From NCBI GenBank assembly GCA_963773875.1, contig CAVZCV010000003.1, positions 69,433 through 133,432 of the forward strand: a DNA stretch of 64,000 nt. Direction: 5' to 3'. Position numbers and translations under genes: made by a program. The number at the start of each line of letters is the position of its first letter. The first letter of the stretch is position 1. The notes below the pieces were generated by a model. That model worked only from the letters and a program-made list of their open reading frames with translations, ran no database searches and was not told the origin of the DNA. This DNA is from Pirellulales bacterium. GTDB lineage: Bacteria > Planctomycetota > Planctomycetia > Pirellulales > JADZDJ01. Below are positions 30,866 to 55,862 of this stretch, piece after piece.

Positions 30866-33136
30866 TCACTTCTGTTCGCTGGAGCTGTTCTCGACGGAAG
30901 TACTGTCGACCGAGCTCAGAATTTTCTTCGTCACTCGATCGGCGAACGCTTCCACATCGGCCAGCGCCGGCGACTGTTTCTCCGGCGAAAAGCCCGACTT
31001 TTCCGCGACCAGCAAACTGATCAGCATTCCGAACAAGCCTGCCGTCGGATCGGCGTGCGAGCCGTTGCCATCGCCATTGCTGCTTGGAGCACCGGCGACG
31101 AATACGCGCTGCGGCACGAGCGGCTGTTTGCTCTTGGACAATTGCTCGGCCAAGAGCGACACGGCATACAGCTTCGGATCGCCGTACGACATGATTCGCC
31201 TGAGCAATACCGCCGCTTCCGACAAACCGACTTCCGCAATCCGTTGCGCCTCGCCGCGACCTTGCAATTCGCGCTCTTGCGAGTTGGCTTCCGCCAGCAC
31301 CACGGTCTGTTCCGCCTGACGGCGCGATTTGGCCAGGTCGGCCTCCGCCATCACCACGGTCTGTTCCGCTTGCTTGCGGGCACGCGCCAAATCGGCCTCG
31401 CCGTGGCTTTCGGCAATTTGCACCTGCACACGCGAGTTGGTGAGCTCGGTTTGCATGTTGGCTTGTGCCTGAGCCTCATTGAGGATCTGCAGCTTTTCCG
31501 CTGCAGCCCGTTGGCGTTCGTACGTTTCGATCTGTTCGACCGAAAGTTGCCGCTCGCGCAATTGCTCCAGCAAGGTTTCGATTTTCGTATCGCCTTGTGG
31601 CGGATCGGGCTTGCCGATCAGCACATCGACGCATTCGATATCGAACTCGCGGAACCGCTTACGCAGCGTTTCACGAGCTTCGGTTTGGATTTGATCGCGT
31701 TCATGCAGTAACTCCAACATGGTTTTCCGATGCGCTACGTCGCGGAAAAACGCCGAGAGCATCGGGTCAAGCGTTTGCGTGATCAATTTTTTCACGTCGC
31801 CAAAACGCTGGATAACGCTGGGCGCCCGTTGGTAGTCGATATGCACGACGACCGAGAGCGGCAACAGCGGCTCGTAAGCGTCTTTAGTAACGAGGTCAAT
31901 CGATCGCAAACTTTCATCGTAACGGTGCGACTCGCTTTTGCCGGTTATCCAGTGCAGCACAAAGTTTGTGGTAGGCACCAAAATAATGGCGCCGGCAAAC
32001 GTGTTGAACGGATACTTGCCCGGCCCCAGCGGCCGCTCCCATACGCCGCGCTCACCTTCGGCGACACGCTCGCCGTGGCGAAACGCAGTACCGGAAACAT
32101 CTTCTCCAACTCGTCCATAATAGCTGACCACCACGCCAACGTACCCAATGGGCACGACGGTTTTTGGAATCATCTCGATCGAAGCAAACCAACGGTTGAT
32201 GAAATATGTGCCATCCGTTAGCGGCACATACTGGCGACCACGGCGGCCGCCTGCCCGCAGGAACGCTTCTGCATCTTGATAATTGTTGTGGTAGTTTTCT
32301 CCCGCCGGATCGGTGCCCACGGCCGGAGCGATAATCTCGCCCGGCGCCAGCGACGGCCCATCGTGAATGGTCACGATGCCAATGCCATCGACCTCACGTG
32401 GGTTCTCGCCATCGAGCGGATCGCTGGTTGCCATCGGGCGTCCGACAACGATTGGATCGAAACCGCCGCAGGCCAGTAGCTCTTCATGCCACTGGGCGAT
32501 GGCTTCCGCCTCCTGGCGATCTAACAGATGTCGCAGCGAATGAACCTTGCTTTCCGTAATCACAATAAACATCGCCAGGTTCACGGCATACACACCTTCG
32601 CGTAAGATCGCCCGTTGCCGACCACGTTGTCCACGAACGGCATTTGGCGAACCATCGCCATTCAGGAACTGACGAGCATCCTGAAAGTGATTGCACGACA
32701 CAATGCGGCCCAGGGTTTGACCGGCCGTAAGCGGCTCGCCATCGCGAGCATACACGTAGCCGATTTTTCCTTGGGCGATCGTGACCATGCGCATCTTGTG
32801 AACGCGGTATTGGCCGCGCCACAAACGGAAGTGCACGCCACCACGCAACAGCTCGGCCTGATAACCAGCCTCGCCATTGAGCGCGATGATGCGCCCTTCC
32901 GGCACGGAGCCGGCGGCAGACCAGAGCTTTTCCACAACGGCAGCCCGATCGTTCGGCACGTAGCGGAGCGTCATCCACGTGGCAAAGGCCAATACAAACA
33001 GCACGACCATCGCCACGAACAGCGCTCCCGTCACCGCGACAAGCCACTGTTCGATGCTTGCGCCCATTCCGGCGCCGACAATCTTCCAACCCGACGGACC
33101 CAGCAGTAACGAACCATACACAAGATTGGCAAACAT
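30866..33136 (-). CDS. Flotillin-like SPFH/Band-7 domain protein (YqiK/FloT family), 756 aa
   Basis: N-terminal TM helix. SPFH region 'VPIGYVGVVVSYYGRVGEDVSG'. Long C-terminal coiled coil with the duplicated repeat 'DLARARKQAEQTVVMAEADLAKSRRQAEQTVVLAEA'. Confidence 0.8.
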   Translation of the reverse strand: MFANLVYGSLLLGPSGWKIVGAGMGASIEQWLVAVTGALFVAMVVLFVLAFATWMTLRYVPNDRAAVVEKLWSAAGSVPEGRIIALNGEAGYQAELLRGGVHFRLWRGQYRVHKMRMVTIAQGKIGYVYARDGEPLTAGQTLGRIVSCNHFQDARQFLNGDGSPNAVRGQRGRQRAILREGVYAVNLAMFIVITESKVHSLRHLLDRQEAEAIAQWHEELLACGGFDPIVVGRPMATSDPLDGENPREVDGIGIVTIHDGPSLAPGEIIAPAVGTDPAGENYHNNYQDAEAFLRAGGRRGRQYVPLTDGTYFINRWFASIEMIPKTVVPIGYVGVVVSYYGRVGEDVSGTAFRHGERVAEGERGVWERPLGPGKYPFNTFAGAIILVPTTNFVLHWITGKSESHRYDESLRSIDLVTKDAYEPLLPLSVVVHIDYQRAPSVIQRFGDVKKLITQTLDPMLSAFFRDVAHRKTMLELLHERDQIQTEARETLRKRFREFDIECVDVLIGKPDPPQGDTKIETLLEQLRERQLSVEQIETYERQRAAAEKLQILNEAQAQANMQTELTNSRVQVQIAESHGEADLARARKQAEQTVVMAEADLAKSRRQAEQTVVLAEANSQERELQGRGEAQRIAEVGLSEAAVLLRRIMSYGDPKLYAVSLLAEQLSKSKQPLVPQRVFVAGAPSSNGDGNGSHADPTAGLFGMLISLLVAEKSGFSPEKQSPALADVEAFADRVTKKILSSVDSTSVENSSSEQK

Positions 33137-33651
33137 TTTCCTTCCTCCCGAGCGCGTCGAGGCTGTGCAACCGCTTCACCAGAAACGTTTGCATCCGAAA
33201 GCGCGCAACCAAATTGGATACACGCCAGAACGCAGGGTTCGCTCTGCGGTCGAAAAACATCGGGCCGATGCGCCCGCTTCGACACAAGAGAGTGCCCTTT
33301 CAACACTTGGCCGAAAACACGCGTTTCAGCCGGGCCGGCGAGGTTAGCTGTCGGGCTAGGGCTTGAAAGTGCCCCGGTTCGCACGAGCCGAACCTGCGCC
33401 CCAAGATGCGATTTTTTCGCGGCGTTTCCGCTCGCTAAACCACATCGAATTGGGTTCCCCGCTGCAGCGTCTGGCGACGCCGCATTAGGCTACACATCTC
33501 TTAATTATATCGTGTTTTTCAAACCTCCCGAAATACACTTTTGCGATTGCATCGCAATGGCAATCGCCGATTGCGGATGCGACAAACCGATTTCTAGTGG
33601 CACATATTTTGCATCAATCGCCGGTCAACGCCGGCCGCTCAACATCGAAAT

Positions 33652-34635
33652 TCATTGTCCGGCTTTCACCAACCCATCAATCGTTTCCTGCGGTGCGCGA
33701 AACACGGTGCCGTGCTTCATGCCGGCAGGCACAACAAGCTGGTCCGAAATATCGTCCCACTTTTTCAAATCGTCCGAAAAGACCACGCCGTACTTTCGAT
33801 CGCGATATTTGTCGAAGTAAATAAACCACCGCCCGCCGATCTTGATCGGCGTCGGCCCTTCTGCCCAATACGCCCCCGTAATTGGCGGCGTGGGCTCGCC
33901 GTATGGTCCTTCGGCATGTTCGGCAAACGCCAGGCGGATATTTTTTTGCGGCGTTAAGGGTTTGTTCGTTTCATCTTTCATCACCATCACGTAACGAGCG
34001 CCGTCTTTAAAAATCGCTGCGTCGATCACGTTGAAGCCGTGCTCGTACAAGAGCGCCGCCTTGCTGAAGGTTTCAAAATCCTTGGTCGTCACGTAGTAAA
34101 TGCGGTGATTCAGCGATTCGCCTTTCTGGCCCTTGTCGCTTTGCCCATCGGTTTGCGGGAAGCGGCCGGGAATGGTTGTGGCCCAAAAGATCAGGTACTG
34201 CTGTTTCTCGTCGTCGTAAAAAAGTTCCGGCGCCCAGCAGTTCACCGTGCCTGGTTCGTGCGCCATGACGGGCAGATATTTTTGCTCAGACCAGTGAATC
34301 AAATCTTTCGACGAGGCATAGCCAATGCCCGGCTCGTGCCAGCTGACCGTCCACACCATGCGATACACGCCATCTGGCCCGCGCACAATCGACGGATCGC
34401 GCATCAACTTGTCGCGTCCCGCCGTCGGCTTGAGCAACGATTTATCGCCATTGAGCGCCGTCCAACGCAATCCGTCCTCGCTGTGCGCCAGATGCAGTCC
34501 ATCTTCGCCGTTGTTTTTGAAGTAGGCGAACAGCAAATGATCGCGCGCCGGCCCATCGATCGGCGGTTGCGCAGCCGCCAGCGATGTGCAGGCCAAGACG
34601 ATCAAGATCGCGAGAAAGATTTTGTTGTGTTTCAT
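33652..34635 (-). CDS. Secreted glycoside hydrolase family 43-like five-bladed beta-propeller protein
   Basis: Signal 'MKHNKIFLAILIVLACTSLAAA'. Also 'LMRDPSIVRGPDGVYRMVWT', 'WAPELFYDD' and 'YYVTTKDFETF'. The alternative start at 34683 adds 16 aa. Confidence 0.65.
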   Translation of the reverse strand: MKHNKIFLAILIVLACTSLAAAQPPIDGPARDHLLFAYFKNNGEDGLHLAHSEDGLRWTALNGDKSLLKPTAGRDKLMRDPSIVRGPDGVYRMVWTVSWHEPGIGYASSKDLIHWSEQKYLPVMAHEPGTVNCWAPELFYDDEKQQYLIFWATTIPGRFPQTDGQSDKGQKGESLNHRIYYVTTKDFETFSKAALLYEHGFNVIDAAIFKDGARYVMVMKDETNKPLTPQKNIRLAFAEHAEGPYGEPTPPITGAYWAEGPTPIKIGGRWFIYFDKYRDRKYGVVFSDDLKKWDDISDQLVVPAGMKHGTVFRAPQETIDGLVKAGQ

Positions 34636-35024
34636 TTTTCGCCCGTTCATGCGTGGTGAGGAACGCTGTGTCATCGAGAACATGTGTTGTGGAAAACAGG
34701 GTTTTGTGAATTGTTCAATGCATCATTCATTTGCTTACTCGATCGCCGCTACGCTGTCCATTCCGAGGCCGCGAGACAAAACATCGCCGCCACTCCTGCG
34801 TCGCCTTTGCTGGATTCCGGATCCAAAAGTGTCCGAACGGGCATTCGCGTTGTGCTCCACGCTTGGCTGTGGTTTTTTCCATGCTGTATTTTCCCAAATG
34901 GCTGAATCCGCGAGGAAAACGTGTGTCGCGAAAATGTTGCCGAAACGTTGAGCACCCGCGCCGCTCGTTTCGTTCGAGAAAAACGCGCGTGCCGGCTGCC
35001 ACTCCGCCCCAAATCGCGTTTCAG

Positions 35025-35097
35025 AGTGAAATAACTGCGGCGCTTTGTACGGGAAATCTCGAGCAATCGGGCCGAGTTTTTTCACAGTTATTTCACT
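35025..35097. repeat. 13-bp perfect inverted repeat (AGTGAAATAACTG ... CAGTTATTTCACT) flanking a 47-bp spacer, in a 0.9 kb intergenic region
   Basis: 35025-35037 is the exact reverse complement of 35085-35097. It is AT-rich in a GC-rich background. 'GTTTTTTCAC' recurs at 35075 and 35150. Confidence 0.6.
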
Positions 35098-35547
35098 GCC
35101 TCGAATTGAGGCACGAAAACGATCGGGAAATCCCGCCCGAATCGCCCCCGGTTTTTTCACCCGGCTCGCGAACGGCGTTAAAGCCGCGTTCGTGATTGTC
35201 TGTCCGTTCCAATCCATGATCTCACGCCCCTCGAAACGTTTGCCTTCCTTAATTTGCCTACCTGTAGTGATCCCGGACCTTGACGGAAGACCGGGATCCT
35301 ATGGGTCCAGGAATATATTAGTGAACATGCGATAATATGTCAAGGGCCATTTTTGGCCACCGGAAAACTTTCTTTGTCGCGTCATGGTGGCCAGGCCACC
35401 GGCTCCGGTAACGGCAGTAGTGCAATGATTGCCCGCTCATCTATTTACGCTTGGATAGCGGCGATTCGGCCGAAATAGTCGCGCCTGATGGATGGACTGC
35501 ACTTTCGGATGTTCAAGCTCACGGGTGCCGGAATACAGCGCAGCGTT

Positions 35548-35553
35548 TATAAT
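35548..35553 (+). promoter_or_regulatory. Candidate sigma70-type -10 box (TATAAT) upstream of the first gene of the tandem array
   Basis: Perfect TATAAT lies ~47 nt upstream of the ATG at 35600. TTGACC is at 35553-35558 and the GGAGG RBS at 35585-35589. There is no strong -35 at canonical spacing. Confidence 0.35.
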
Positions 35554-35599
35554 TGACCAAGCGCAAATGGTCCCATTTTAATTTGGAGGTAACATTCCG

Positions 35600-36157
35600 A
35601 TGTTCATTCCAAACATGCTCCTTCTCATTGGGGTTGCCCTTCGCTGCGGCATTTCAGGACTTAGTCAAGCGCCGGCAGAAATTTGGGAAGATACCGCCGT
35701 GATCTATGCCGAGGTTCTTGGAGTTCAAAGTGGCGCTGGCCACGGGTTTATCATTGAGCTGAAGCCATTGGCCACACTATCGGGTCGGGTCGATGCAGCG
35801 TTTGAAGGGAAACTGTTTGCTACGGTCGTCATTGGTGACTCTCAAATACGCGAGATTAGTGCCCCTCCCAAAAAAGGCGCAAAAGTAATCGCAGTTGTCA
35901 TTCAAAACAATTCGAAATGGCACAACGCGGGAATTCCCAATGGGAGTGCGTCGTTCTTGCCTTTAACCGGACTTAATACGGCCCCTTGTCTCTTTGAAGT
36001 CACCGGGTTCGACGATCCAAAGGTGACCGAGACGATCGAAAAGCTCCAGAAGCTGCGAGGCAAGCAGCGCGAGGAAGCCGAAAAAGCCGCCGCCGAAAAA
36101 GCGCAGTCCGGCAAGAACCCCATCACCCCACCCACCACCGCCGCCGCCGGCAAATAG
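35600..36157 (+). CDS. Small secreted protein, tandem-array paralog 1 (conserved 'CLFEVTGFDDPKVTETIE-L-KLRG-QREEAEKAAAEKAQSGKNP' tail)
   Basis: GGAGG RBS. Signal peptide 'MFIPNMLLLIGVALRCGISGLSQA'. Family motifs 'WEDTAVIYAEVLG', 'LKPLATLSGRVDAA' and 'AKVIAVVIQ'. Conserved C-terminal 55 aa. Confidence 0.75.
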   Translation: MFIPNMLLLIGVALRCGISGLSQAPAEIWEDTAVIYAEVLGVQSGAGHGFIIELKPLATLSGRVDAAFEGKLFATVVIGDSQIREISAPPKKGAKVIAVVIQNNSKWHNAGIPNGSASFLPLTGLNTAPCLFEVTGFDDPKVTETIEKLQKLRGKQREEAEKAAAEKAQSGKNPITPPTTAAAGK

Positions 36158-36222
36158 CTCGCCGGTCGGAACAATCCCCAGTACCAACAAAGGTTCCTGA
36201 TCCTGACACCTTTTACTCTCCC
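35984..36222 (+). repeat. Direct repeat unit 1 (~240 bp; 3' end of paralog 1 plus ~65 nt 3' flank), ~85-90% identical to units at 36717-36954 and 37477-37695
   Basis: Nucleotide-level near-identity runs through '...ttcgaagtcaccgg.ttcga.ga.cc.aaggtgac.gagac.at.gaaaa.ct.c..a.ctccgc...gccgccgccgaaaaagcgcagtccggcaagaacc...tagctcgccggtcggaac.atccccagtaccaa.aaaggttcctga...tgacaccttttactctccc'. Confidence 0.8.
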
Positions 36223-36288
36223 AATATCGAGAATCCCCAGTTCCAGTAGTTGTGTTGTAGGTCAAGTCTCATTTTGAAAGGAGAGATA

Positions 36289-36887
36289 ATGATAGGCTCC
36301 ATACTCGCAATACTGATCAATCTGGCAAGCACATGCGGCACGATTGGAGCCGACGTCGAGGACCGTTCGTTCTGGTCCTTCTCCTCGGTTATTTATGCCG
36401 AAGTGCTCGGTACGACAAAATCGACGGCTGATCATCCCGGCGACAAGATTACGTTGCGGCCGATTTCCACGCTTACCGGATCCTTCGATTGCGCATATGT
36501 CGGGCAATTTACAGCGGGAACGCAGGTTGGCGCTGACTCAGCGCAATCGATGAATTGCCCCCGAATGGCGCGAAGGTAATCGCACTTGTCTTACACGGGA
36601 AGCCGGGAGATTGGCAAATTAAGGACACGCAATTCCTCATCCCCAATAACGGCTGTGCCTATTTTCCCGCGGCGGAGCGTCCAAAAGGTTACGTCCAAGA
36701 TTATCACAAAAAATATCCGTGCCTCTTCGAAGTCACCGGCTTCGACGATCCAAAGGTGACGGAGACGATCGAAAACCTGCGCAAGCTCCGCGGCCAACAG
36801 CGCGAGGAAGCCGAAAAAGCCGCCGCCGAAAAAGCGCAGTCCGGCAAGAACCCCACCACCCCACCCGCGCCCGACGCCGGCAAGTAG
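36289..36887 (+). CDS. Small secreted protein, tandem-array paralog 2 (indel near 36540-36580 as assembled)
   Basis: AAGGAGAG RBS. Signal 'MIGSILAILINLASTCGTIGA'. 'FWSFSSVIYAEVLG' and 'LRPISTLTGSFDCA' in frame 1. Then 'AKVIALVLHG...CLFEVTGFDDPKVTETIENLRKLRGQQREEAEKAAAEKAQSGKNPTTPP' in frame 0. Confidence 0.72.
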
Positions 36888-36954
36888 CTCGCCGGTCGGA
36901 ACGATCCCCAGTACCAAAAAAGGTTCCTGACCTCCTGACACCTTTTACTCTCCC
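36717..36954 (+). repeat. Direct repeat unit 2 (see 35984-36222)
   Basis: Same conserved 3'-coding plus 3'-flank segment as units 1 and 3. Confidence 0.8.
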
Positions 36955-37033
36955 GACAAAATTTCAGAAACCGAACGTGGTAATGAAGTGTTTCAATAAA
37001 GGGCGATTAACTATGCGTTCGGAGGACATGTAG

Positions 37034-37708
37034 ATGCTCAACGTACTACTTGGGATCTCATTTTTAGTTAGTATATGCCGAGTGATCGTTGAGGACGGTT
37101 CGCCTCCCGAGCTTTGGCAGAATGCGGCGGTTTTATACGCTGAAGTCCAATCTACTAAATTAAATAATGAAGAGATTCCCAATAAATCTGATAAACACCC
37201 AGGCGGCGCGCTCCAGAATGCAGATTATTCGATACGCATCAAACCAATCGCCACATTGACAGGGAATTTCGATTCAGCGCGGGAACAAGATATTGAAATT
37301 CAAACGCAGGTTTTTGGCACGGCAGTGATGGATCAAGGTGCAATACACCAGGTTCCAGCCAACCACGCCAAGATAATCGTCATGATTAAATGGAACGATT
37401 CGGCATCCGACCGTAAAAACCGAGTGCCCACTTGGGATGTACGTTTTTTTCCCCAGGATACGAACAAAAATCGGCCCGCCCTGTTCGAAGTCACCGGTTT
37501 CGATGACCCGAAGGTGACCGAGACAATTGAAAACCTGCGAAAACTCCGCGCCGACCAAAATTCCACTAGTATTTTACGGCCCTTTTTTGAGAAGTCGCCC
37601 GAACGCGCCGAAAACGCCGCCGCCGAAAAAAAGCGCAGTCCGGCAAGAACCCTACCACCCCACCCGCGCCCGCCGGCAAATAGCTCGCCGGTCGGTGATC
37701 GCTCGTGA
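37034..37708 (+). CDS. Small secreted protein, tandem-array paralog 3. The C-terminus is frameshifted by an A7 run at 37626-37632 (A5 in paralogs 1 and 2). The corrected stop would be 37683
   Basis: GGAGGA RBS. Signal 'MLNVLLGISFLVSICRVIV'. Motifs 'WQNAAVLYAEV', 'IKPIATLTGNFDSA', 'AKIIVMIKW' and 'ALFEVTGFDDPKVTETIENLRKLR'. A ~45-nt divergent insert precedes the 'AENAAAEKK' tail. Confidence 0.72.
   Translation: MLNVLLGISFLVSICRVIVEDGSPPELWQNAAVLYAEVQSTKLNNEEIPNKSDKHPGGALQNADYSIRIKPIATLTGNFDSAREQDIEIQTQVFGTAVMDQGAIHQVPANHAKIIVMIKWNDSASDRKNRVPTWDVRFFPQDTNKNRPALFEVTGFDDPKVTETIENLRKLRADQNSTSILRPFFEKSPERAENAAAEKKRSPARTLPPHPRPPANSSPVGDRS
37477..37695 (+). repeat. Direct repeat unit 3 (see 35984-36222), carrying an internal ~45-nt divergent insertion
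   Basis: Conserved 'ttcgaagtcaccggtttcgatgacccgaaggtgaccgagac' ... 'gccgccgccgaaaaaaagcgcagtccggcaagaacc' ... 'tagctcgccggtcgg'. Confidence 0.75.
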
Positions 37709-37748
37709 ACGACTACGGCAGCACTCATCAACGGCCGATGCGATTGAC

Positions 37749-39322
37749 TCAATGCGTCCAGCCGCAAATCGTGGCCAGGCCGCGAATGGCGCCGCTGCCG
37801 CCGCCGAAGCACTGGCAAAGAATGACGCTGCCCACGCCCATCAGCCCCACGGTCGGCGGTTCCGGCACGGGCACAATGATGCCCACCACGGATGTATTGA
37901 AATTGTTATAGGCCGAATACGTGCCGCGCATCCAAATCAGTGCGAATTGCGATTGATCGATCACGCTCACCTGCGGTCGCACATTATCGGTCGTCGAGTT
38001 CGAAGTGATCGCCGACCAGTTCCACGTCGTTCCGCCGTCGCTGGTGACGCCTTTGAAAATCTCCCAATGCGCAAGCGGCGAGTCGGTATCGGGCGTGTAG
38101 TTGGTCGAGACGAAAACCGTGTTCGGGTCGTTCGGCACCAGCGTCGCCAGGCCGGCATAGTCGTTCTCGCCGTTGTAGAGCGGGCTGCCGGCGAAGCCCA
38201 TGCGGTGCGTTTGCCACGCGGCGCCATCCCAGCGCGAATAGTAATAATCCATGCTGTTGGCGATGTACGAACTATTGGGGTTGTTCTTCCGCACGCTGAA
38301 GATCAAAAACGGATTGCCACTGGCGTCGAGCTCCACATCGTTCGCCCACGAGGCAACGCTGTTGGCGTTGCCAGCGTAAATTTGCGTGAACGCGGTTGGG
38401 GAATAGCTGTATCCAGTGCCGCTGGCAATTGCCGCTGCATTGTTGTTCGCCGGCGCCGGAAAAGGAGTTTGAGCGGTGCTGATCTGCCCGTTACTGCCGG
38501 CAACCGTCGACCCATCAGCCTTATGCACGGTGCCAACGCCATTGGCATCGAACTGCAAATAGCCGGCGAACAGGCTGTTCGCGAAATCGCGCGGATGATC
38601 GTTCGTGGTGATGAACCAAATCTTGTCGGAACCGTTCGAGGCATATTTGACGTACGGCCTTCCCGGGCCGCTGTTGTTCGGATTCACCCAATACAGAAAG
38701 TGGCCGCCGTAGGCAAAGCTCAACGACGAATCGTTGGTCGGATTCAAGCCCGTGAACGTCGAATAATTTGGATCGTAGCCGATGCTGCGCGAGAAATTGT
38801 AAATCTTGTTCGGCACGCTCAAATAAAACGGATTGGCGTATGTGTTACCATTGCCATCGCTGGGCGGGTTGGCACTGCCTGTTTGCTCCGCACCCCAACT
38901 CGCCGTGCTGCCGGGATCGGTGCTAATGCGCCACGCACGAGATTATCGGTGCCGTGGCGTTGAAATACCGCCAGGTAGCGGCCATCGGGCAGCACGACGA
39001 AAGCCGGCACATCGTGGTCGTCCTGCTGTAGCGCGCTGTGCAACGTGAACGTCGACGGCGTTTGCGTTGCCAAACTATAGCTCGTGACGCGAATATCACC
39101 GGCCGTCGCGCCATTGGCGGTCGTGCCTGCAACGGAACCAATAATGAGCTGATGGTTATCGACAATCACGCGCGGATCTTGAAACCACGACCAGCCGCCG
39201 TTTTGCGTAAAGGTAATGAGCGAACCGGCAACGTCATTTGCGGCAAACGACCGGTTGCAAATTGCAAGTATCACAAGAAGCTGTAGCCCAACAGCCGTGC
39301 CATGAATCCGAAAATGTCGCAT
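37749..39322 (-). CDS. BNR/Asp-box repeat (sialidase-fold-like) cell-surface protein with a C-terminal PEP-CTERM-like anchor. Split as two ORFs, with an indel near 38820-38960
   Basis: Signal 'MRHFRIHGTAVGLQLLVILAICNRSFAA' in ORF 38819-39427. Asp-box 'VTSDGGTTWNW'. C-terminal 'IVPVPEPPTVGLMGVGSVIL' (VPEP plus hydrophobic helix) in ORF 37749-38822. Confidence 0.65.
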
Positions 39323-39463
39323 CCTCGAAGCTCCTCTCATCCGGGCAACGCTGTCCCCAGACTTTGCGAATCGAACAAGATTCGCACCAGCGAACAAAAT
39401 CGCCGCAGATGCGGCGTCGGGCCACACCTGCGGCGGTGTGCATCAATCGACATATCCGCCAAA

Positions 39464-40459
39464 TTATTTCCACCGCAGCATTGCCATTCCCAAGCCGCCC
39501 AGGACGAACAAAACGACCGATGTTGGTTCCGGCACTACGGCTAGGCTGCCCGTCGCTTGATTGAACTGATACGTCGCACCATTGGCCGATTTCTCCCAGA
39601 GGCCACTGCCCAAATTGTTGAAGCCATTGACCGTGAACGTGCCCGTGAAAGTCTGGCCACCGGCGGCAGCTGCGACCGCCCACGTGTCGCCGATGTTCGT
39701 GCTCGCCCCGGCCAAGTTGAAGTTAAATGCACCATCGTAAATCGCAGTGCCAGGGCCAAACACTCGGTTATTCACGCCACTTGCGCCAATCACAAAGTTC
39801 AATGCACCGGTGCTATCCAATTCAAATTTGCTGAAGTTCGGAGAGCCGGCATTCAGATTTAAACTGCCCGTCCACGTATTGCCGCCGTTGGTGAAATGCA
39901 GCGTTCGGGCTGCATCCGTATTTCCAGGCGTATCCAGGAACGTATCGCCCGAGCCGCTGATCAGCGAATTGATAAACGTCGGCCCCTGAACATTAAACCC
40001 GCCACCGTTGATGGTCAAATTTCCCGCCAGCGCAAAGAAATCGGCGCTTCCGTTTCCCTGGCGAATGTAGCCGCTGTTGAAAATCATGTTGTTGACGGTA
40101 ATCACATTCGGCGTTGCGGCACTACCACCGGTGCCTTTGAAAATGAGCGATTGATTCAAATCTGTGGCATTGTTGCTGGCGATCGTGAGTGAATCGCCGG
40201 CAAAGGTAAAGTTGGCGTTTGCGGCCGGAGTGCGGAGTAAGTGACCGAGGCCACCCGCGTCGGCATTGGTATAAGCGTTTCCAGCCGACGGCGCCGCAGC
40301 GTTGCTCCAATTACCGGCCGAATTGAACGAGCTGGTGCCGATCGAATCGTTCGCCGTTAGATTCACCGTTGCAGCCTGCGCGACGCCCGCCAGGCTGAAC
40401 ATCGCGATCGCAAAGTTGCAGCCGCGTAACCAACCACGAGTCAAACTTGTCCGAGTCAT
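39464..40459 (-). CDS. PEP-CTERM-anchored secreted repeat protein (beta-helix/autotransporter-like Gly/Asn/Thr-rich repeats)
   Basis: Signal 'MTRTSLTRGWLRGCNFAIAMFSLAGVAQAATVNL'. Repetitive 'TFAGDSLTIASNNATD...NLTINGGGFNVQG'. C-terminal 'SLAVVPEPTSVVLFVLGGLGMAMLRWK' is the canonical PEP-CTERM sorting signal. Confidence 0.78.
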   Translation of the reverse strand: MTRTSLTRGWLRGCNFAIAMFSLAGVAQAATVNLTANDSIGTSSFNSAGNWSNAAAPSAGNAYTNADAGGLGHLLRTPAANANFTFAGDSLTIASNNATDLNQSLIFKGTGGSAATPNVITVNNMIFNSGYIRQGNGSADFFALAGNLTINGGGFNVQGPTFINSLISGSGDTFLDTPGNTDAARTLHFTNGGNTWTGSLNLNAGSPNFSKFELDSTGALNFVIGASGVNNRVFGPGTAIYDGAFNFNLAGASTNIGDTWAVAAAAGGQTFTGTFTVNGFNNLGSGLWEKSANGATYQFNQATGSLAVVPEPTSVVLFVLGGLGMAMLRWK

Positions 40460-41073
40460 GTCACCACTCTCCCATGTCAATAGATGCAAATTCCGGATGT
40501 TAAATCGAGATTGCCTTTCTGCATTATTCCAGTGACCATGATACGTTCGACGAAGGGCCGACAACAAGGATTTTTTTGCGGTTTTTGGCCTCAATTTCCG
40601 TCCCGCACCATTACCGGGATGCGCCGTTTCGTTACACGAATTCTCGGCCAAAACCTGAACTTTTCCCGGCCGGTACACAAGCGTTTGAACAGGCTCTGGC
40701 ACCGAGTGAAGACTCGAACCTCATCGACCGCCTGATCCCAATTCGGCCAACCCAGTCGTTGTCGGTCGACGGGGGTGATTAGCCCGTGATGTTACCTGGT
40801 GTATTAAGATCCCTGAAATGGCCGGCATGGTCGGCACGTGGTTGTCGCTGCGGGGTGTCCTCGGGATCATCAATTTGGACCCGTTTAGAACGTGGCTAGC
40901 GAGCCAATCTTCGGGATTTGCCTTTGAAAGCGCCGCCGGCGAGCTGGAACAGGATTTGCTTGCAAATCTTGATTCCGCTTTAGTCTCGCGTGGTAGTATG
41001 TCGGCTCGCGAAAATCTGATTTCAGCTGCGCAAAAAACTGCCACAGTTCCGGTTCTTGCTGCTGGGAGGAAAC

Positions 41074-42042
41074 GTGTTACTTCATCGAACCAAACCTGGC
41101 CGCTTGAAGGCTCGCAGGTCGCACAAGGATCCTTTCCAAGTCGATGTGATCGCTGGACTGTCTGCGCAACCCAAACATTTGCCTTGCAAGTATTTTTACG
41201 ATCAACGTGGCTCGGCGCTGTTCGATGCCATTTGCAATTTGGACGAGTACTATCTGACGCGCTCCGAACTGGAAATTATGGAACGCTTTGCGCCCGAAAT
41301 GGCCCGCGCCGTTGGACCGGCTGCGACGATCGTCGAGTTTGGCAGCGGAAGCAGCGTCAAAACGCAGCTGCTCTTGGATCAGCTTGGTGCGTGCGTTTAC
41401 ATTCCGGTCGATATTTCTCGCGAACATTTGCAGGCGACGGCGCACGCCCTGACACGGCTGTATCCGCATGTTGCGGTGCGCCCCGTAAGTGCAGATTTCA
41501 CGACCGACTTTGAATTGCCCGCGGTGGAAGGCAGGCGCACGAGTCGCACGGTCTATTTTCCTGGTTCCACGATTGGCAATTTCGAGCGCGAGGAAGCGAC
41601 CTCGCTCTTGAATCGTATCGCCGCTTTGTGCGGTCCCACGGGCGGCCTCTTGATAGGAATCGATTTGCAGAAAGATGTTCAGACGATCGAAGCGGCCTAC
41701 AATGACGCACAAGGGGTAACAGCCCAGTTCAATTTGAATTTGCTCGCGCGGATCAACCGCGAACTTGGCGGCCAATTCGAGTTAACGCAGTTCGAGCATT
41801 CGGCGGTTTACGATCATGATTATCATCGAGTCGATATCCGACTCGTTAGCCGGTGTAATCAAAGCGTGGAGATTGGCGCTGACGTATTCAATTTCCGCTG
41901 CGGCGAATCGATTCAGACCGAATATTCGCATAAATATTCCTTGGACGGTTTCGCAGGGATGGCCGGTGAGGTCGGTCTGCGACTGCAAAAATGCTGGACC
42001 GATCGGCGAGGTTATTTCGCTGTTTTATACATGACTTGGTGA
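41074..42042 (+). CDS. egtD: L-histidine N-alpha-methyltransferase (ergothioneine biosynthesis)
   Basis: GGAGG RBS with a GTG start. 'DVIAGLSAQPKHLPCKYFYDQRGSALFDAICNLDEYYLTRSELEIM' and 'VEFGSGSSVKT' SAM motif. Also 'YFPGSTIGNF' and 'QFNLNLLARINRELG'. Confidence 0.88.
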   Translation: MLLHRTKPGRLKARRSHKDPFQVDVIAGLSAQPKHLPCKYFYDQRGSALFDAICNLDEYYLTRSELEIMERFAPEMARAVGPAATIVEFGSGSSVKTQLLLDQLGACVYIPVDISREHLQATAHALTRLYPHVAVRPVSADFTTDFELPAVEGRRTSRTVYFPGSTIGNFEREEATSLLNRIAALCGPTGGLLIGIDLQKDVQTIEAAYNDAQGVTAQFNLNLLARINRELGGQFELTQFEHSAVYDHDYHRVDIRLVSRCNQSVEIGADVFNFRCGESIQTEYSHKYSLDGFAGMAGEVGLRLQKCWTDRRGYFAVLYMTW

Positions 42043-42047
42043 TCGCG

Positions 42048-43330
42048 ATGAGCGCCACAATTCGACCCGTCCGCCCGAGTGAGCAAACGTCATTGGCAGC
42101 GCGCTACGCCGAAGTGCGCCGATTCACAGAAGAGTTGTGCGCGACGCTGGAGCCCGACGATTGCTGCATTCAATCGATGGCGGATGTCAGCCCCACGCGC
42201 TGGCACCTCGCGCACACCACCTGGTTTTTTGAGACGTTTATTCTTGCGGACCAACCGGGTTACCAGGTGTGCCGGTCCGAATACAGTTTCCTATTCAATT
42301 CGTATTACAACGCCATCGGCGAGCAGTTTCCCGCGCACGGCGTGGATTGCTTTCGCGGCCGACGGTTGCCCAGGTGTTCGAATATCGCCGCGAGATCGAT
42401 GATCGCATGCTGCGGCTGCTATCGGAGGCAGATGACAGTTTGCAGCAGCGTTTGCGCGAGCGACTGGAATTGGGTTTGAATCACGAGCAGCAACATCAGG
42501 AGTTAATGCTGACCGACATCAAACATGTGCTCGCTTGCAATCCGATGAATCCGATTTATCGAGCGGGGCATTTTTCCACTGACGAGCCACCGGCGCCGGA
42601 GTGGGTTGAGTTCGACGAAGGACTGTGCTGGATCGGCCACGACGGAGATGGCTTCGCTTACGACAACGAGCAGCCGCGGCATCGCACCTTTTTGGAAGAC
42701 TTTCAGATCGCTAACCGCCTGGTGACGTGCGGCGAGTACTTGGATTTCATTCACGATGAGGGCTACAAGCGGCCCGAACTGTGGCTTTCGCAGGGTTGGA
42801 ATTTGGTGAACGAGCAAGGTTGGCATGCGCCGTTGTATTGGCGGCAGCGCGAACACGAGTGGCATGAGTTCACCCTGGCCGGCATGCGGCCACTGGTGCA
42901 CGACGCCCCGGTCTGCCATTTAAGCTATTTCGAAGTAGATGCTTATGCGCGCTGGGCCGGCGCACGATTGCCGACGGAAGCCGAATGGGAAATCGCCTCT
43001 GCGAAGGTTCCCGTTGAAGGGAATTGGGCCGATACGCTGATTGCGGCCGATGCGGCTGTTCATCCTGCCGCTGGCGCCGATGGCAATTCACGCCCGGCTC
43101 AAATGTTTGGCAATGTCTGGCAGTGGACGGCCAGCCCCTACGTTGGTTACCCGGGCTACCGCACTGCCGCGGGCGCGCTCGGAGAATACAACGGCAAATT
43201 CATGTGCAACCAATTTGTACTGCGTGGCGGTTCGTGCGCTACGCCGTCGAAGCACATCCGCCGAACGTACCGCAACTTCTTCCCGCCCGAAGCCCGTTGG
43301 CAATTCTCCGGCGTGCGTTTGGCAAAGTAG
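42048..43330 (+). CDS. egtB: Hercynine oxygenase / sulfoxide synthase EgtB (DinB_2 plus FGE-sulfatase domains), with an indel near 42340-42370 as assembled
   Basis: N-terminal 'SPTRWHLAHTTWFFETFIL' DinB-like region in ORF 41991-42479. 'EYRREIDDRML...NHEQQHQELMLTDIKHVL...GWHAPLYW...GNVWQWTASPYVGYPGY...YRNFFPPEARWQFSGVRL' in ORF 42269-43330. Confidence 0.85.
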
Positions 43331-52055: not shown

Positions 52056-53238
52056 GATTCGCCTCCAGCGGCAAATACTCGTCGAAGTACGGATCGTCGG
52101 TCGGCAGTAGCGATCGGGCTTTGAGTTTCCGTACGAACCACCACATCCACAGTCCGCCTAATCCGATCCACGCGCCCAAATCGACAATCCAGTACCAGCC
52201 CACGCCGTCGGGAAATGCCGCTTCGACCGACCAATACAAATTCACGAATTGCAGCACTAAGACCAACCCTGCGATCGCGGCCAATCGCCGCGGATTTTCT
52301 TTCACATCGCGCGAGAGCAAAAACAAAAACGGAATGGCAAATTGCAACACTACCAGCGTCATGGCAATCCACTGCCAGCCGCCGCGAGTGCGCAGCAAAT
52401 ACCAGGGAATTTCCTCCGGCAGGTTTTCGACCCAAATCAACAGGAATTGCGAGAACGATAAATAGGCCCAGCACATGACAAACGCCAGCAGCAAATTACC
52501 AAGATCGCGCCAATGATTCGGGCGCGCGACACTGCCAATTGGCTCCGCGCCGGCCAGCATCGAAAGCATCACCGTGGCGAACGCCATCCCGCTGAGGATT
52601 TGAGCCACGGCAAATAGCGGCGGATAAATGGTCGAATACCAGTTGGGCTCGAGCGACATAATCCAATCGATCGAAGCGAATGTGATGCTCAGGCCGTACG
52701 CCACTAGTCCCCAAGCGCTCACGAGCCGAATGGCCCGCGACGGGCCTTGGCTGCGCCCTTGCTCTTGCCGAATCGACCAGATGCGCAAAATGCCACTGAA
52801 TACATTCCACAGCAGGAAGTAAACTCCCGCCCGCACCAAAAAAAATGGCACGTTGAGATAATCGCTTTTGTCCAAAACCTCGGCTGTTTTGCTGCTGACA
52901 GCAGAGTGAGCCCAGGGGTAGATTCGCTCGACACCAAACGCCAGTGGAACAAATAGCAACAGCACGAGCGGTAGCGTCGCCACTGCGGCTTCCAGAATTC
53001 GCCGCAGCAAAATTCCCCACGCGCCCCCGGTGAGGTATTGCACCATCAATAGCACCATGCAGCCAAGCGTGATGCCGAGCCAGAATAAGCAACCGACCAG
53101 GTATCCGCGGAAGAAATGTTCCGGGCTAGTGAGTGCACCCCAGGCAATTGGCACGGCACTAACGATCATCGCCAGCACGGCGCCGCGTTGAATTCGCGGC
53201 CACAGATCGGAATGTGACGCGTGCTCTGGGTTATTCAT
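52048..53238 (-). CDS. actF: Alternative complex III subunit ActF (NrfD/PsrC-like integral membrane quinol-binding subunit 2)
   Basis: A ~10-TM protein paralogous to the ActC region, in the canonical position after actE. Confidence 0.75.
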   Translation of the reverse strand: MNNPEHASHSDLWPRIQRGAVLAMIVSAVPIAWGALTSPEHFFRGYLVGCLFWLGITLGCMVLLMVQYLTGGAWGILLRRILEAAVATLPLVLLLFVPLAFGVERIYPWAHSAVSSKTAEVLDKSDYLNVPFFLVRAGVYFLLWNVFSGILRIWSIRQEQGRSQGPSRAIRLVSAWGLVAYGLSITFASIDWIMSLEPNWYSTIYPPLFAVAQILSGMAFATVMLSMLAGAEPIGSVARPNHWRDLGNLLLAFVMCWAYLSFSQFLLIWVENLPEEIPWYLLRTRGGWQWIAMTLVVLQFAIPFLFLLSRDVKENPRRLAAIAGLVLVLQFVNLYWSVEAAFPDGVGWYWIVDLGAWIGLGGLWMWWFVRKLKARSLLPTDDPYFDEYLPLEANHD

Positions 53239-53942
53239 GGCCGCGCCTCCAGCGCTTGTTGCGCAGCGTGCTGCTCTTCGACGGGCAGCTGGTCGAGCGA
53301 TGAATACTGGCTGATTTGCAGTGCTCGAATATATGCGGCAATGGCCCAGCGATCGCGCGGCGGCACTTGGGTCGAGTAATCGGCCATCGCGCCCATGCCG
53401 TGGGTGATTACTTCAAAGAAATAGCCGATTGGCACGTCGCGCAAACGGATCTTCAGCCCCTCACGCGCCAGGCCCCGCGAATCATCGGCAATATACGACG
53501 GTGGCCGCGTGTATCCGCGGCGGACAATCGTGCCGTCGCCTTCGCCGGTGACACCGTGACACACGACGCAAAACACCTTGTAACGCTGCTGCCCTCGCTC
53601 CAGGACCTCCATGGTTAACGGGAAGGGTGGCTCCGACTTGAAATCGTCTGCCGACGTCGGCCGCGTCGGCAATGCCCGGCGCGTGCGTCCGGTCAGCAAA
53701 GCCTTGTCTTCCGCTCTTTCGCTCCACTCAAACGTGCCTTCCACCGCCGGGCGCGCTGCACGGCCATCTTCAAAAAACGCGCTATATTCCAAAGGCCGGT
53801 AACTCGGCTGGTTTGCCATTTTCTGCTGACAACCGCCGACCACGGCACAGAGAAACATGCATCCTGTAAGAATCGTCCGGCGGCGAGCGCATGCCATTGG
53901 GCGAATTCCCCGGTGCCTAATTATTCCAAAATGCCTACTCAT
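53235..53942 (-). CDS. actE: Alternative complex III monoheme cytochrome c subunit ActE (lipoprotein)
   Basis: '[38 protein letters not shown]' signal/lipobox. A single 'CVVCHG' heme motif. Overlaps the actD stop by 4 nt. Confidence 0.75.
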   Translation of the reverse strand: MSRHFGIIRHRGIRPMACARRRTILTGCMFLCAVVGGCQQKMANQPSYRPLEYSAFFEDGRAARPAVEGTFEWSERAEDKALLTGRTRRALPTRPTSADDFKSEPPFPLTMEVLERGQQRYKVFCVVCHGVTGEGDGTIVRRGYTRPPSYIADDSRGLAREGLKIRLRDVPIGYFFEVITHGMGAMADYSTQVPPRDRWAIAAYIRALQISQYSSLDQLPVEEQHAAQQALEARP

Positions 53943-54514
53943 GGCGGCACCTCCACGACTTCGTGTGCGCCGAGGGTGCCGAGAAATCTGGCCGTTTCGT
54001 CCCGCTTGAACTGCGGATCGATCGCTTGAATGCACAAAAAAAATCGGTCGCGGCTCGCCAGGGCAAAGCGCGGAACATTGAACACCGGATGATACGGCAT
54101 CGGCAAGCGATTCAACACGAACATGCCCATCACTGCCGAAATCGCGGCACACAGCACGGTCAATTCAAATGTGACCGGAATAAATGACGGCCAACTGTTG
54201 AGCGGCCGCCCTCCGACATTCAGCGGATAATTCACCGCCATGCACCAATACTGCAAATAAAACCCGCCGGCACAGCCGATGAGTCCACCGATCAACGTAA
54301 TGAGCGGCACGCGCGTGCGGCGCATTCCCAATTCTTCGGCCAATCCTTCCACGGGAAACGGTGTATACGCATCCATCCGCCGATAGCCCGCCGCGCGCGC
54401 CGCCTTCACTGCTGTTAGCAGTTGGGCAGGATCGCGGAAATCGGCGATCAATCCGTAAATATCAAACGGATGGTCCACTGGCAGTTTCCGTTTCGGTTTG
54501 CGATACGAGCGCAC
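53939..54514 (-). CDS. actD: Alternative complex III subunit ActD (DUF3341 membrane protein)
   Basis: '[31 protein letters not shown]' followed by 2 TM helices, matching the ActD family. Confidence 0.75.
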
Positions 54515-55858
54515 GCATTTCGGCGATCGAAATCATCGGAAGCAATCGCAGGAAAATGAACAGCAAGCTGAAGAACAGGCCGAGCGAACCCAAAAACGTG
54601 GCCCAGTCCCAAATCGTTGGCGAGTACATGCCCCACGACGACGGCAGAAAATCGCGCTGTAGACTGGTGACGACAATCACAAAACGTTCGAGCCACATGC
54701 CGACGAGCACAATGGCCGCGACAATGAAGAGAGCGATGGGACTTGAACGAACATGCCTCGACCAGAGCACTTGCGGGGCCACTACGTTGCAAGCAATTAG
54801 CGCCCAGAAAGCCGTTCGATACGGCCCGGTAGCGCGGTTCACTTGCACGTACCATTCGTATTTGTTCCCGCCGTACCACGACATGAAGGCTTCAATAAAG
54901 TATCCGTACGCGACAATCAGCCCCGTGGCGAGCATCACTTTGGCCATGTTCTGCAAGTGCCGCTCTGTGATGAAATCTTCCAGGCCATAAAAACTGCGCA
55001 GCGGGATGGCGAGCAGCAGCACCATGGCGAAACCAGAATAAATGGCTCCGGCGACGAAGTACGGCGGAAAAATGGTCGAATGCCAGCCCGGCAAATCGGC
55101 GACAGCGAAATCGAAGCTCACGACGGTATGCACCGAGACCACGAGCGGCGTCGCCAATCCGGCCAAGAGCAAATACGCGGTCTCATACCGCTTCCAGTGA
55201 TAAGCGGAGCCACGCCAACCCATTGCCAGTACGCCGTAGGCAATCCGGCCAAAGCGATGTTGCGAACGGTCGCGCAGCGTGGCCAGGTCGGGCACTAGCC
55301 CGACATACCAGAACAATAGCGAGACGGTGAAATAAGTCGAAACCGCAAACACATCCCAAACTAGCGGGCTGCGAAACTGCGGCCAGATCTTCATCGTGTT
55401 GGGGTACGGCAGTAGCCAATAAAAAAACCATGGTCGGCCCATGTGCAATAGCGGAAACAGTCCGGCGCTGGCGACTGCGAACAACGTCATCGCTTCAGCA
55501 AACCGATTGATCGATGTTCGCCATTCCTGGTGCAAGAGCAGCAAGATTGCGGAGATCAACGTCCCGGCATGCCCGATGCCAATCCACCACACGAAATTCA
55601 CGATCGCAAAGCCCCAGGCCACCGGCACGTTGATGCCCCAAATGCCCACCCCGACGAACAGCAAATAGCTGATCGCGTACAAGAGCAGCATCAACAGCGA
55701 GAACGAAATCAAAGCGCCAATCCACCAGCCGCGCGGCGCGCGCCGAATTTGCACAATCGAACTGATCTTGTCGGTAACCGAAGAAAACGTGTGCCCGGGC
55801 TCCAGAACGGGTGGTTCATCGATTTCGGCATCCCCTTTGTAAGGCAGCGCGGCATCGC

Positions 55859-55862
<4 letters not shown>
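54462..55862 (-). CDS. actC: Alternative complex III subunit ActC (NrfD/polysulfide-reductase-like quinol-oxidising membrane subunit)
   Basis: 466 aa with ~10 TM helices and '[27 protein letters not shown]' typical of NrfD-family. ATGA overlap with actB. Confidence 0.82.

Follow-up and report, generated by a model that had tools for sequence, protein, structure and literature searches.

A tandem array of NTR/TIMP-like OB-fold paralogs with a family-wide conserved 3' coding module in a Pirellulales bacterium, possibly orphan genes for cognate-binding proteins

How three neighbouring genes whose bodies have little in common came to share nearly the same 3' end is the question raised by a locus of a Pirellulales bacterium. 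The stretch analysed, hereafter the window, comprised 64,000 nucleotides (nt) of contig CAVZCV010000003.1, and the three consecutive paralogous genes lie on its + strand at 35600-37708 (genes 1 to 3, Table 1). Direct repeats of 105-163 nt with 71-89% identity and a period of 733/758 nt joined the three 3' ends, which is far beyond chance. Comparison of genes 1 and 2 showed that the tail from LFEV to the stop was identical at 148 of 165 ungapped columns (90%) and the 65-nt 3' flank at 63 of 65 (97%), and that the bodies were approximately 50% identical in DNA, which amounts to no real alignment, and 33-36% identical in protein. Gene 3 matched the conserved module of gene 2 at 87% of ungapped columns, and an insertion of its own interrupts the module. 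Each gene had a Shine-Dalgarno-like GGAGG/AGGAG 6-9 nt ahead of its ATG. The original prediction, made by a model from the letters alone, was largely right in its observation: three same-strand paralogs with a ribosome-binding site each and a shared motif skeleton were all recovered. Its figures of about 85-90% identity for the tail and flank and about 25-35% for the N-terminal part agreed with genes 1 and 2, but the likeness of gene 3, which keeps 12 nt of the flank, was overstated and problems of reading frame in genes 2 and 3 were overlooked.

The three proteins had no meaningful match in scans of Pfam, NCBIfam, PADLOC and PHROGs or in a sequence-profile search of the PDB. A word-indexed search produced 54 close relatives of 150-200 residues, all of them unnamed, with several pairs sharing a contig. 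An exhaustive profile search over 1.84 billion representatives produced 460 clusters (50% identity clusters) at E ≤1e-3, of which 293 reached E ≤1e-10. Some proteins of the wider family carried the domain twice or three times, and one was a fusion with an FGE-sulfatase domain. The single match among species-representative genomes was a Pirellulales metagenome-assembled genome (MAG), in line with the lineage-specific family that had been proposed, and locus scans of genomes and metagenomes gave one and three loci, respectively. A search with the tail only returned six short fragments and was uninformative. Most of the loci that could be read carried arrays of 2-5 copies. The family appears to be undescribed and limited to Pirellulales-like Planctomycetota.

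An AlphaFold2 model of the gene 1 protein built from 49 sequences reached a mean predicted local distance difference test score (pLDDT) of 87 and a predicted template modelling score of 0.77. Strands at residues 32-44, 49-61, 72-77, 95-103, 106-112 and 131-134 formed a beta barrel and were followed by a helix at 140-170. The four best Foldseek matches were all NTR, NtA or C345C domains (E 2.5e-4 to 1e-3), the closest relatives in fold being agrin NtA (1JB3), PCOLCE NTR (1UAP), complement C3 C345C and N-TIMP-3; generic oligonucleotide/oligosaccharide-binding (OB) folds such as RPA32 and Stn1 scored 8.0-8.4 against the same model. No match at E ≤0.001 was found by Foldseek among the viral structures of BFVD. 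An OB barrel with packed terminal helices is thus the arrangement that the model has in common with NTR/TIMP-like proteins. With the Pfam models NTR, TIMP and NtA, neither the three proteins nor 10 distant members gave a match at E ≤1. A 51-sequence alignment contained no Cys that was invariant or nearly so, and the Cys positions varied among genes 1-3. The family is therefore best described as NTR/TIMP-like in its predicted OB fold but not in sequence, lacking both a profile match and the defining cysteines, which in TIMPs include Cys1 at the N-terminus of the mature protein. The statement that no known domain is present holds for the sequence databases named above but not for the fold, which is a known one.

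Export of the proteins is likely, judging from their N-termini. A hydrophobic N-terminal segment was present in each window protein (11-residue Kyte-Doolittle mean 2.3-2.7), in agreement with the predicted signal peptides, and a hydrophobic N-terminal core was present in 120 of 132 members, the distant ones having textbook signal peptides. Gene 1 had a signal-like N-terminus, OB barrel, C-terminal helix and Lys-terminated tail. The first part of the tail, which had been described as a flexible tether, was a confidently modelled helix belonging to the domain, and the low-complexity distal tail was modelled less confidently. A C-terminal Lys was found in 47 of 58 subfamily members (81%) and in 86 of 155 of the wider family, with Lys making up 16% of the preceding 20 residues. 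These proteins are built of four parts: a signal-like hydrophobic N-terminus, a variable NTR/TIMP-type OB barrel, a near-invariant loop plus helix (VTGFDDPKVTETIENLRKLRGKQREE), and a tail rich in Ala, Lys, Glu and Pro, with Lys as its usual last residue. A second, shared function is suggested by the constancy of the helix and by the terminal Lys.

The conservation of the tail was found far beyond the window. The segment LFEVTGFDDPKVTETIENLRKLRGKQREE was nearly invariant throughout the subfamily, and in the 51-sequence alignment gene 1 positions 134-161 (VTGFDDPKVTETIE.L.KLRG.QREEAE) were invariant or at least 90% conserved among relatives whose bodies were 35-50% identical to gene 1. At the DNA level, 17 of 19 copies from other loci had 2-12 mismatches to the consensus of an 83-nt module. 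By sequence comparison, the conserved tail is a family-wide constraint and not an array-specific homogenisation. The three window genes are, on the same kind of evidence, old paralogs, because the synonymous sites of their bodies are saturated (codon identity 0.33-0.38 at identical residues). The recent duplication with diversifying selection that had been proposed is not supported in view of this saturation, and the suggested comparison of nonsynonymous to synonymous substitution rates between body and tail is not meaningful with body synonymous divergence saturated.

The module was conserved more strongly in DNA than its protein sequence requires. Its DNA was approximately 90% identical between genomes whose bodies are saturated at synonymous sites. 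Between genomes, codon identity at positions with the same residue was 0.63 in the tail and 0.33 in the body, against about 0.38 expected from the codon usage of the family. For the orthologous pair L002_c/L011_b (related loci carry L numbers), the body proteins of which are 75% identical, the same codon was used at 15 of 74 identical residues in the body and at 23 of 30 in the tail. Codon choice in the module was position-specific, with GAC at Asp180 and GAT at Asp181, GAA at Glu175, Glu189 and Glu214, and GAG at Glu200. Guanine plus cytosine content at third codon positions (GC3) was 0.68-0.87 in the tail and 0.40-0.60 in the body. Codon bias was rejected as the source of this synonymous conservation, because the window uses the alternative codons of Glu, Asp, Lys, Ile, Asn and Gln almost equally, and relatedness at the species level was rejected by the orthologous pair. 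Module mismatches averaged 8.2 within a genome and 9.5 between genomes; since the two are alike, concerted evolution alone is no sufficient explanation. Candidate causes are GC-biased conversion, with the module as a hot spot of recombination, a signal not yet recognised and accuracy-driven codon selection.

The distal tail and flank behaved differently from the module in that they varied between genomes and were near-identical inside some arrays (0.90 in the window, over 130 nt downstream of the module; 0.84 in L005; 0.74 in L001), a pattern that would fit local gene conversion or a shared duplication tract. Within the window, signs of local homogenisation are confined to genes 1 and 2, where the distal tail and 65-nt flank probably represent such a conversion or duplication tract. 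Recombination at the module itself was caught in one case. L002 and L003 are the same locus in two samples, 98.5-99.2% identical (L002 4725-6525 compared with L003 67-1220), with three and two copies, respectively. In its first copy, L003 combined a body matching copy a of L002 with a tail and flank matching copy b; the switch point fell inside an 11-nt window of the module, and a 647-nt deletion relative to L002 removed one copy. This copy-number polymorphism is an unequal crossover within the conserved module. The homogenisation of 3' ends that had been suggested is thus seen in this crossover and in the near-identical distal tails and flanks of some arrays, but it does not account for the module, which is shared by about 50 subfamily members from many samples. 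Overall, the arrays would change as copies are born and lost, as the module gives rise to unequal crossover and as conversion acts locally on the distal tail and flank. Hypermutation of the diversity-generating retroelement type was rejected because numerous indels separate the bodies and their substitutions affect all four bases, although no scan for a reverse transcriptase was made. Integron cassettes were also rejected: no significant inverted repeats were found at the flanks, the flanks folded no better than shuffled sequence, the array members are mutually homologous, and a tyrosine recombinase was near only L002 and L010.

These observations raise the alternative that the module, with or without its flank, is primarily a nucleotide-level element, either a hot spot for recombination and cassette exchange or an embedded regulatory DNA or RNA signal. 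It would explain conservation beyond the need of the protein and is compatible with the explanation preferred below. The codon identities of tail and body, overall and in the orthologous pair, speak for it, as do the position-specific codons that the weak codon bias of the window leaves unexplained, the crossover junction inside the module and the two modules that flank each body in cassette arrays. The GC3 difference is what GC-biased conversion predicts; however, several fixed module codons end in A or T, which such conversion does not explain. An RNA signal found no support: RNAalifold on the tail and flank gave weak structure (-7.7 kcal/mol) with no covariation, single-sequence folds of the flank had z scores of -1.6 to +1.1 relative to shuffled sequence, and Rfam had no match in the tail or flank, its sole match in 33000-41000 being a c-di-AMP riboswitch outside the array. 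Two antisense frames over the module were mostly open with inconsistent extents (51-204 residues), and an antisense gene was rejected in favour of a compositional effect. The DNA comparison also involved only about 20 copies, which are non-independent. Taken together, a primarily nucleotide-level role is judged improbable. A GTCACC...GGTGAC inverted repeat in the module was attributed to repeated Val-Thr codons, with variants that break the pairing and none that compensate. No terminator-like site was found at the gene ends of the array, and a promoter scan of the flank gave a single weak sigma-70-like match (9/12, 36935-36962), with counts equal to those of shuffled sequence.

A possible function was indicated by the gene context of the relatives. 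An all-against-all comparison of the open reading frames (ORFs) around the arrays showed one recurrent neighbour, a C-terminal domain that is conserved, spans about 130 residues and has the motif FQLDVSA.T.DPTVGGEQVYTR.A.ADW.F.G.G...W.IV.DGSRSPLP. In 7 of 13 related loci, which come from at least four independent samples or projects (L006, L008 four times, L009, L010, L011, L012 and L013), 20-130 nt separated the end of this partner domain from the OB gene downstream. It formed the end of large HemolysinCabind (RTX) proteins in L010 and L013. In L008 it ended a Big_9/Cadherin_5 protein and was also present as short domain-only ORFs alternating with OB genes. A DDE transposase gene was located about 4 kb upstream of these L008 cassettes. 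Identity between partner domains correlated with identity between the adjacent OB bodies (Spearman 0.51, over 28 non-independent pairs).

Because relatives show a layout of an effector end followed by a cognate binder, and because the window array stands without a partner, the array is tentatively interpreted as a set of orphan genes for periplasmic cognate-binder proteins of the inhibitor or immunity type. This is the best explanation available, held with somewhat less than even confidence. The variable barrels would recognise different partner domains, and all copies would use the constant helix and tail to one end, for instance docking, oligomerisation or tethering. A role as binder or inhibitor is compatible with the predicted TIMP/NTR-like fold. 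Partnerless copies, which together with tandem divergence are a trait of immunity arrays, numbered three in the window, two in L001, three in L002 and two in L005, with bodies 32-37% identical. Of the functions that had been listed at the outset, 'immunity-like' is the one that best fits the gene context of the relatives.

Several observations weigh against this interpretation. No partner domain was present in the window, where the best match of the hidden Markov model (HMM) had E = 0.91, or in L001, L002, L004 and L005, so the link rests on the relatives. The correlation of identities could be produced by co-duplication of neighbouring genes. The partner domain had no Pfam match and only four database relatives, its invariant residues are few (D, A, W, W, P) with no obvious catalytic motif, and its AlphaFold2 model was unusable (pLDDT 43); an effector-type toxin or enzyme was thus not recognised, the domain having no Pfam family and its invariant residues not looking catalytic. 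In the upstream partner proteins only HemolysinCabind, Big_9 or Cadherin_5 were found and no peptidase domain. The three window copies also have no Lys or Arg ahead of the hydrophobic core. Finally, giant surface proteins are common in planctomycetes and some of the adjacency could be coincidental, but the tight spacing and the ORFs consisting of the partner domain only argue against coincidence.

Besides the NTR/TIMP-like modules, four known systems showed partial likeness. Serralysin RTX proteases are encoded beside small periplasmic inhibitors with signal peptides, which are thought to protect the producer (PMC4070987). As with AprA/AprI, Inh and SmaPI, the gene for a small signal-bearing beta-barrel protein adjoins here the gene for a secreted RTX-repeat protein. 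The serralysin inhibitor is an eight-stranded barrel whose N-terminus binds zinc; the proteins described here differ in fold, have no sequence similarity to it (the OB proteins had no Pfam match to the AprI/Inh family), occur in multi-copy arrays, and adjoin a partner without a recognisable protease domain. Arrays of orphan immunity genes are also known (bioRxiv 10.1101/471110; PMC12247911). The present arrays resemble acquired interbacterial defence clusters and the orphan immunity genes of the type VI secretion system in consisting of tandem, divergent, fast-evolving small genes of variable copy number with no adjacent toxin. They differ from them in belonging to one homologous family, with no link to that secretion system seen, no recombinase consistently adjacent and a partner domain without known toxin activity. 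Cassettes of orphan toxin C-terminal domains and immunity genes occur in contact-dependent inhibition (CDI) and Rhs systems. L008 is similar in repeating a short C-terminal-domain ORF and a small gene behind a large secreted protein, with a conserved segment that supports homologous recombination. In contrast to CDI/Rhs, the recombining segment is the 3' end of the small gene and not a pre-toxin motif, the delivery protein is RTX/cadherin-like and toxicity is putative. The array would represent known kinds of system, namely paralogous binder or immunity arrays, built on an NTR-like OB fold. The fourth system, Braun's lipoprotein, is taken up below.

A further-reaching proposal, for which confidence is low, is that the family supplies the binder or immunity half of an unrecognised planctomycete system, in which RTX/cadherin-like giants carry a polymorphic C-terminal domain and TIMP-like periplasmic OB-fold proteins neutralise it. 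The 83-nt module, present at the 3' end of each binder gene, would then act as a nucleotide-level homology anchor for the gain, loss and swap of cassettes of partner domain and binder, as a homology-driven counterpart of integron or CDI-orphan cassette exchange, and the binders would be anchored in the envelope by their invariant helix and terminal Lys. If the preferred cognate-binder reading is right, the 460 clusters, none of them annotated, would constitute a fairly large new family of TIMP/NTR-like proteins in bacteria and would give initial access to the pairing of giant RTX-like proteins of soil Planctomycetota with small periplasmic partners. The module is also a clean natural case of coding DNA that is conserved past the need of the protein and demonstrably mediates change in copy number, which bears on the building and shuffling of polymorphic arrays.

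Two other functions were considered for the proteins. The first, proposed originally, is a lineage-specific family of secreted or surface effectors or adhesins whose bodies are under positive selection after recent duplication, with the tail as a flexible tether. The signal-like N-termini, the variable bodies and the low-complexity distal tail with its lower model confidence are in keeping with it, and so are the surface proteins nearby, namely the PEP-CTERM protein at 39464-40702 in the window and giant Big/Calx/RTX proteins near the relatives. However, the saturated bodies indicate an old duplication and leave the substitution-rate ratio inestimable, the proteins are single small OB domains without adhesin repeats, the conserved segment is a helix, and the cassettes with partner-domain ORFs suit a binder or immunity role better; effectors or adhesins are thus considered unlikely. 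The second is a structural or tethering role in the envelope, in which the C-terminal Lys would be cross-linked to peptidoglycan, the helix would be a spacer and the variable barrel would be incidental. In Braun's lipoprotein Lpp, the C-terminal Lys is cross-linked to peptidoglycan, and the present proteins are comparable as putative envelope proteins with a helical C-terminal part ending in Lys. The 81% of subfamily members with a terminal Lys and the long helix followed by an Ala/Lys/Glu-rich segment speak for this role. Unlike Lpp, the present proteins have a globular OB domain, are much larger and have no lipobox (Q, R, T or M precedes a semi-conserved Cys, and many members have no Cys), and cross-linking is only hypothetical here. 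Divergent tandem paralogs and pairing with the partner domain are also left unexplained, and a purely structural role is regarded as still less probable than the effector or adhesin one.

The genes were not all intact as originally described. Gene 2 as written consisted of two overlapping ORFs in different frames (36250/36289-36579 and 36555-36887), and the family HMM matched it in two pieces whose frames differ, 36289-36555 (profile 1-88) and 36540-36851 (profile 84-174). Addition of one C to the C5 run produced a 199-residue protein with ...SMNCPPNGAKVIALV..., fitting the family motif P.KGAKVI. In gene 3, besides the insertion, the annotated tail ...RSPARTLPPHPRPPANSSPVGDRS was out of frame, and the canonical tail AQSGKNPTTPPAPAGK was found in the -1 frame, reading ...EKKAQSGKNPTTPPAPAGK up to the stop at 37681-37683. 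The A7 run of gene 3 is probably an assembly error from A8 to A7, and the repaired tail ends in GK as in the rest of the family. The run also forms an in-frame A_AAA_AAG heptamer, a classic bacterial -1 slippery sequence, the -1 product of which is the canonical tail.

Erroneous loss of single nucleotides in the assembly is the most likely origin of the frameshifts in genes 2 and 3, because housekeeping genes of the window are split too (Table 1), all the frameshifts behave as single-base deletions, and the closest relatives sit in 'MFD' and ERZ2503xxxx assemblies, which belong to the Nanopore-only Microflora Danica survey of soil (PMC12313526). The other window genes checked for splits were intact. 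The frameshift in the aminotransferase lies near 2366-2387. That the frameshifts are real, with the array decaying to one intact gene, one pseudogene and one altered tail, or expressed by slippage at the C5 and A7 runs as phase variation or -1 frameshifting at the heptamer, is very unlikely on the same evidence, to which are added the shortness of 5-7 nt tracts for phase variation and the location of two of the shifts in relatives outside homopolymers. In favour of real frameshifts, gene 2, gene 3 and the BNR_4 gene beside them account for three shifts in 2.4 kb, split copies are also present in L002, L008 and L009, and the gene 3 heptamer is correctly framed for the canonical product. Two independent copies, in L008 (11970-12050) and L009 (7290-7350), had 1-nt deletions in the same non-homopolymer CTGCGCAAG stretch of the module, for which either real decay or systematic miscalling of bases at a modified motif may be responsible. 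Annotation of such arrays in long-read MAGs calls for frame-aware handling.

Table 1. Features of the array, its relatives and its surroundings. Positions refer to the window unless a locus is named.
Feature	Positions	Strand	Remarks
Gene 1	35600-36157	+	Intact 185-codon ORF; 100% match to public protein P0001; family HMM 220 bits
Gene 2	36289-36887	+	ATG at 36289; family member split by -1 frameshift
Gene 3	37034-37708	+	224-codon ORF as written; identical to public protein P0051; body and module intact
Conserved 83-nt module, gene 1	35999-36081	+	Encodes VTGFDDPKVTETIEKLQKLRGKQREEAE; 9 mismatches to family DNA consensus
Conserved 83-nt module, gene 2	36732-36814	+	5 mismatches to family DNA consensus
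Module start, gene 3	37490-37557	+	First 68 nt; remainder displaced by insertion
39-nt in-frame insertion	37558-37596	+	Gene 3 only; interrupts module after KLR (gene 2/gene 3 tail alignment)
Distal tail and 65-nt 3' flank, gene 1	36062-36222	+	Near-identical to gene 2 tract; repeat families D2, D6, D9
Distal tail and 67-nt 3' flank, gene 2	36795-36954	+	Partner of gene 1 tract 36062-36222
Shared 3' flank, gene 3	37684-37695	+	Only 12 nt (CTCGCCGGTCGG) kept after canonical stop; repeat family D5
C5 run	36558-36562	+	Site of gene 2 frame change; probably 1-nt deletion in assembly
A7 run	37626-37632	+	A5 in genes 1 and 2; throws gene 3 tail out of frame
BNR_4 gene, split	37749-39427	-	Frameshift near 38945; adjoins array
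PEP-CTERM protein	39464-40702		Passes PEP-CTERM model
c-di-AMP riboswitch	33318-33501	-	RF00379; 57.2 bits against gathering score of 38; full-length
Class-III aminotransferase, split	1824-3007	+	ORFs 1824-2387 (Pfam profile 17-211) and 2366-3007 (214-393)
EgtB-like gene, split	41991-43330	+	DinB_2 in 41991-42479; FGE-sulfatase in 42269-43330
L008 cassettes (partner-domain ORF/OB gene)	L008: 5459-5932/6001-6606, 6814-7182/7200-7749, 7825-8190/8335-8793, 9401-11461/11506-12065		

The neighbours of the array in the window were a GH43-like gene, a Band_7 gene with the c-di-AMP riboswitch, the split BNR_4 gene and one PEP-CTERM protein, and none of them recurs near the relatives. The 916-nt spacer upstream of gene 1 (34684-35599) had no supported gene and no Rfam match; two overlapping ORFs on opposite strands at 34731-35217 had no Pfam match. 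This spacer had been taken for a long repeat-bearing region, which was not borne out: its repeats are trivial, consisting of one 11-nt sequence present twice and one 21-nt pair at 81% identity. Two PEP-CTERM proteins had been expected downstream. One of them passed the model (Table 1), but the other turned out to be the BNR_4 gene split by a frameshift, the N-terminal piece of which has a signal peptide and the C-terminal piece a VPEP motif that fails the PEP-CTERM model. The riboswitch lies directly upstream of a 756-residue Band_7/SPFH ORF (30866-33136, - strand). An ergothioneine-type pair was present at 41056-43330 (+ strand), with an intact EgtD-like Methyltransf_33 gene (41056-42042) beside the split EgtB-like gene. 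Finally, Alternative complex III genes were identified at 53235-55862 (- strand), apparently intact, with ActD at 53939-54514, an NrfD-like subunit at 54462-55862 and a cytochrome c subunit at 53235-54152.

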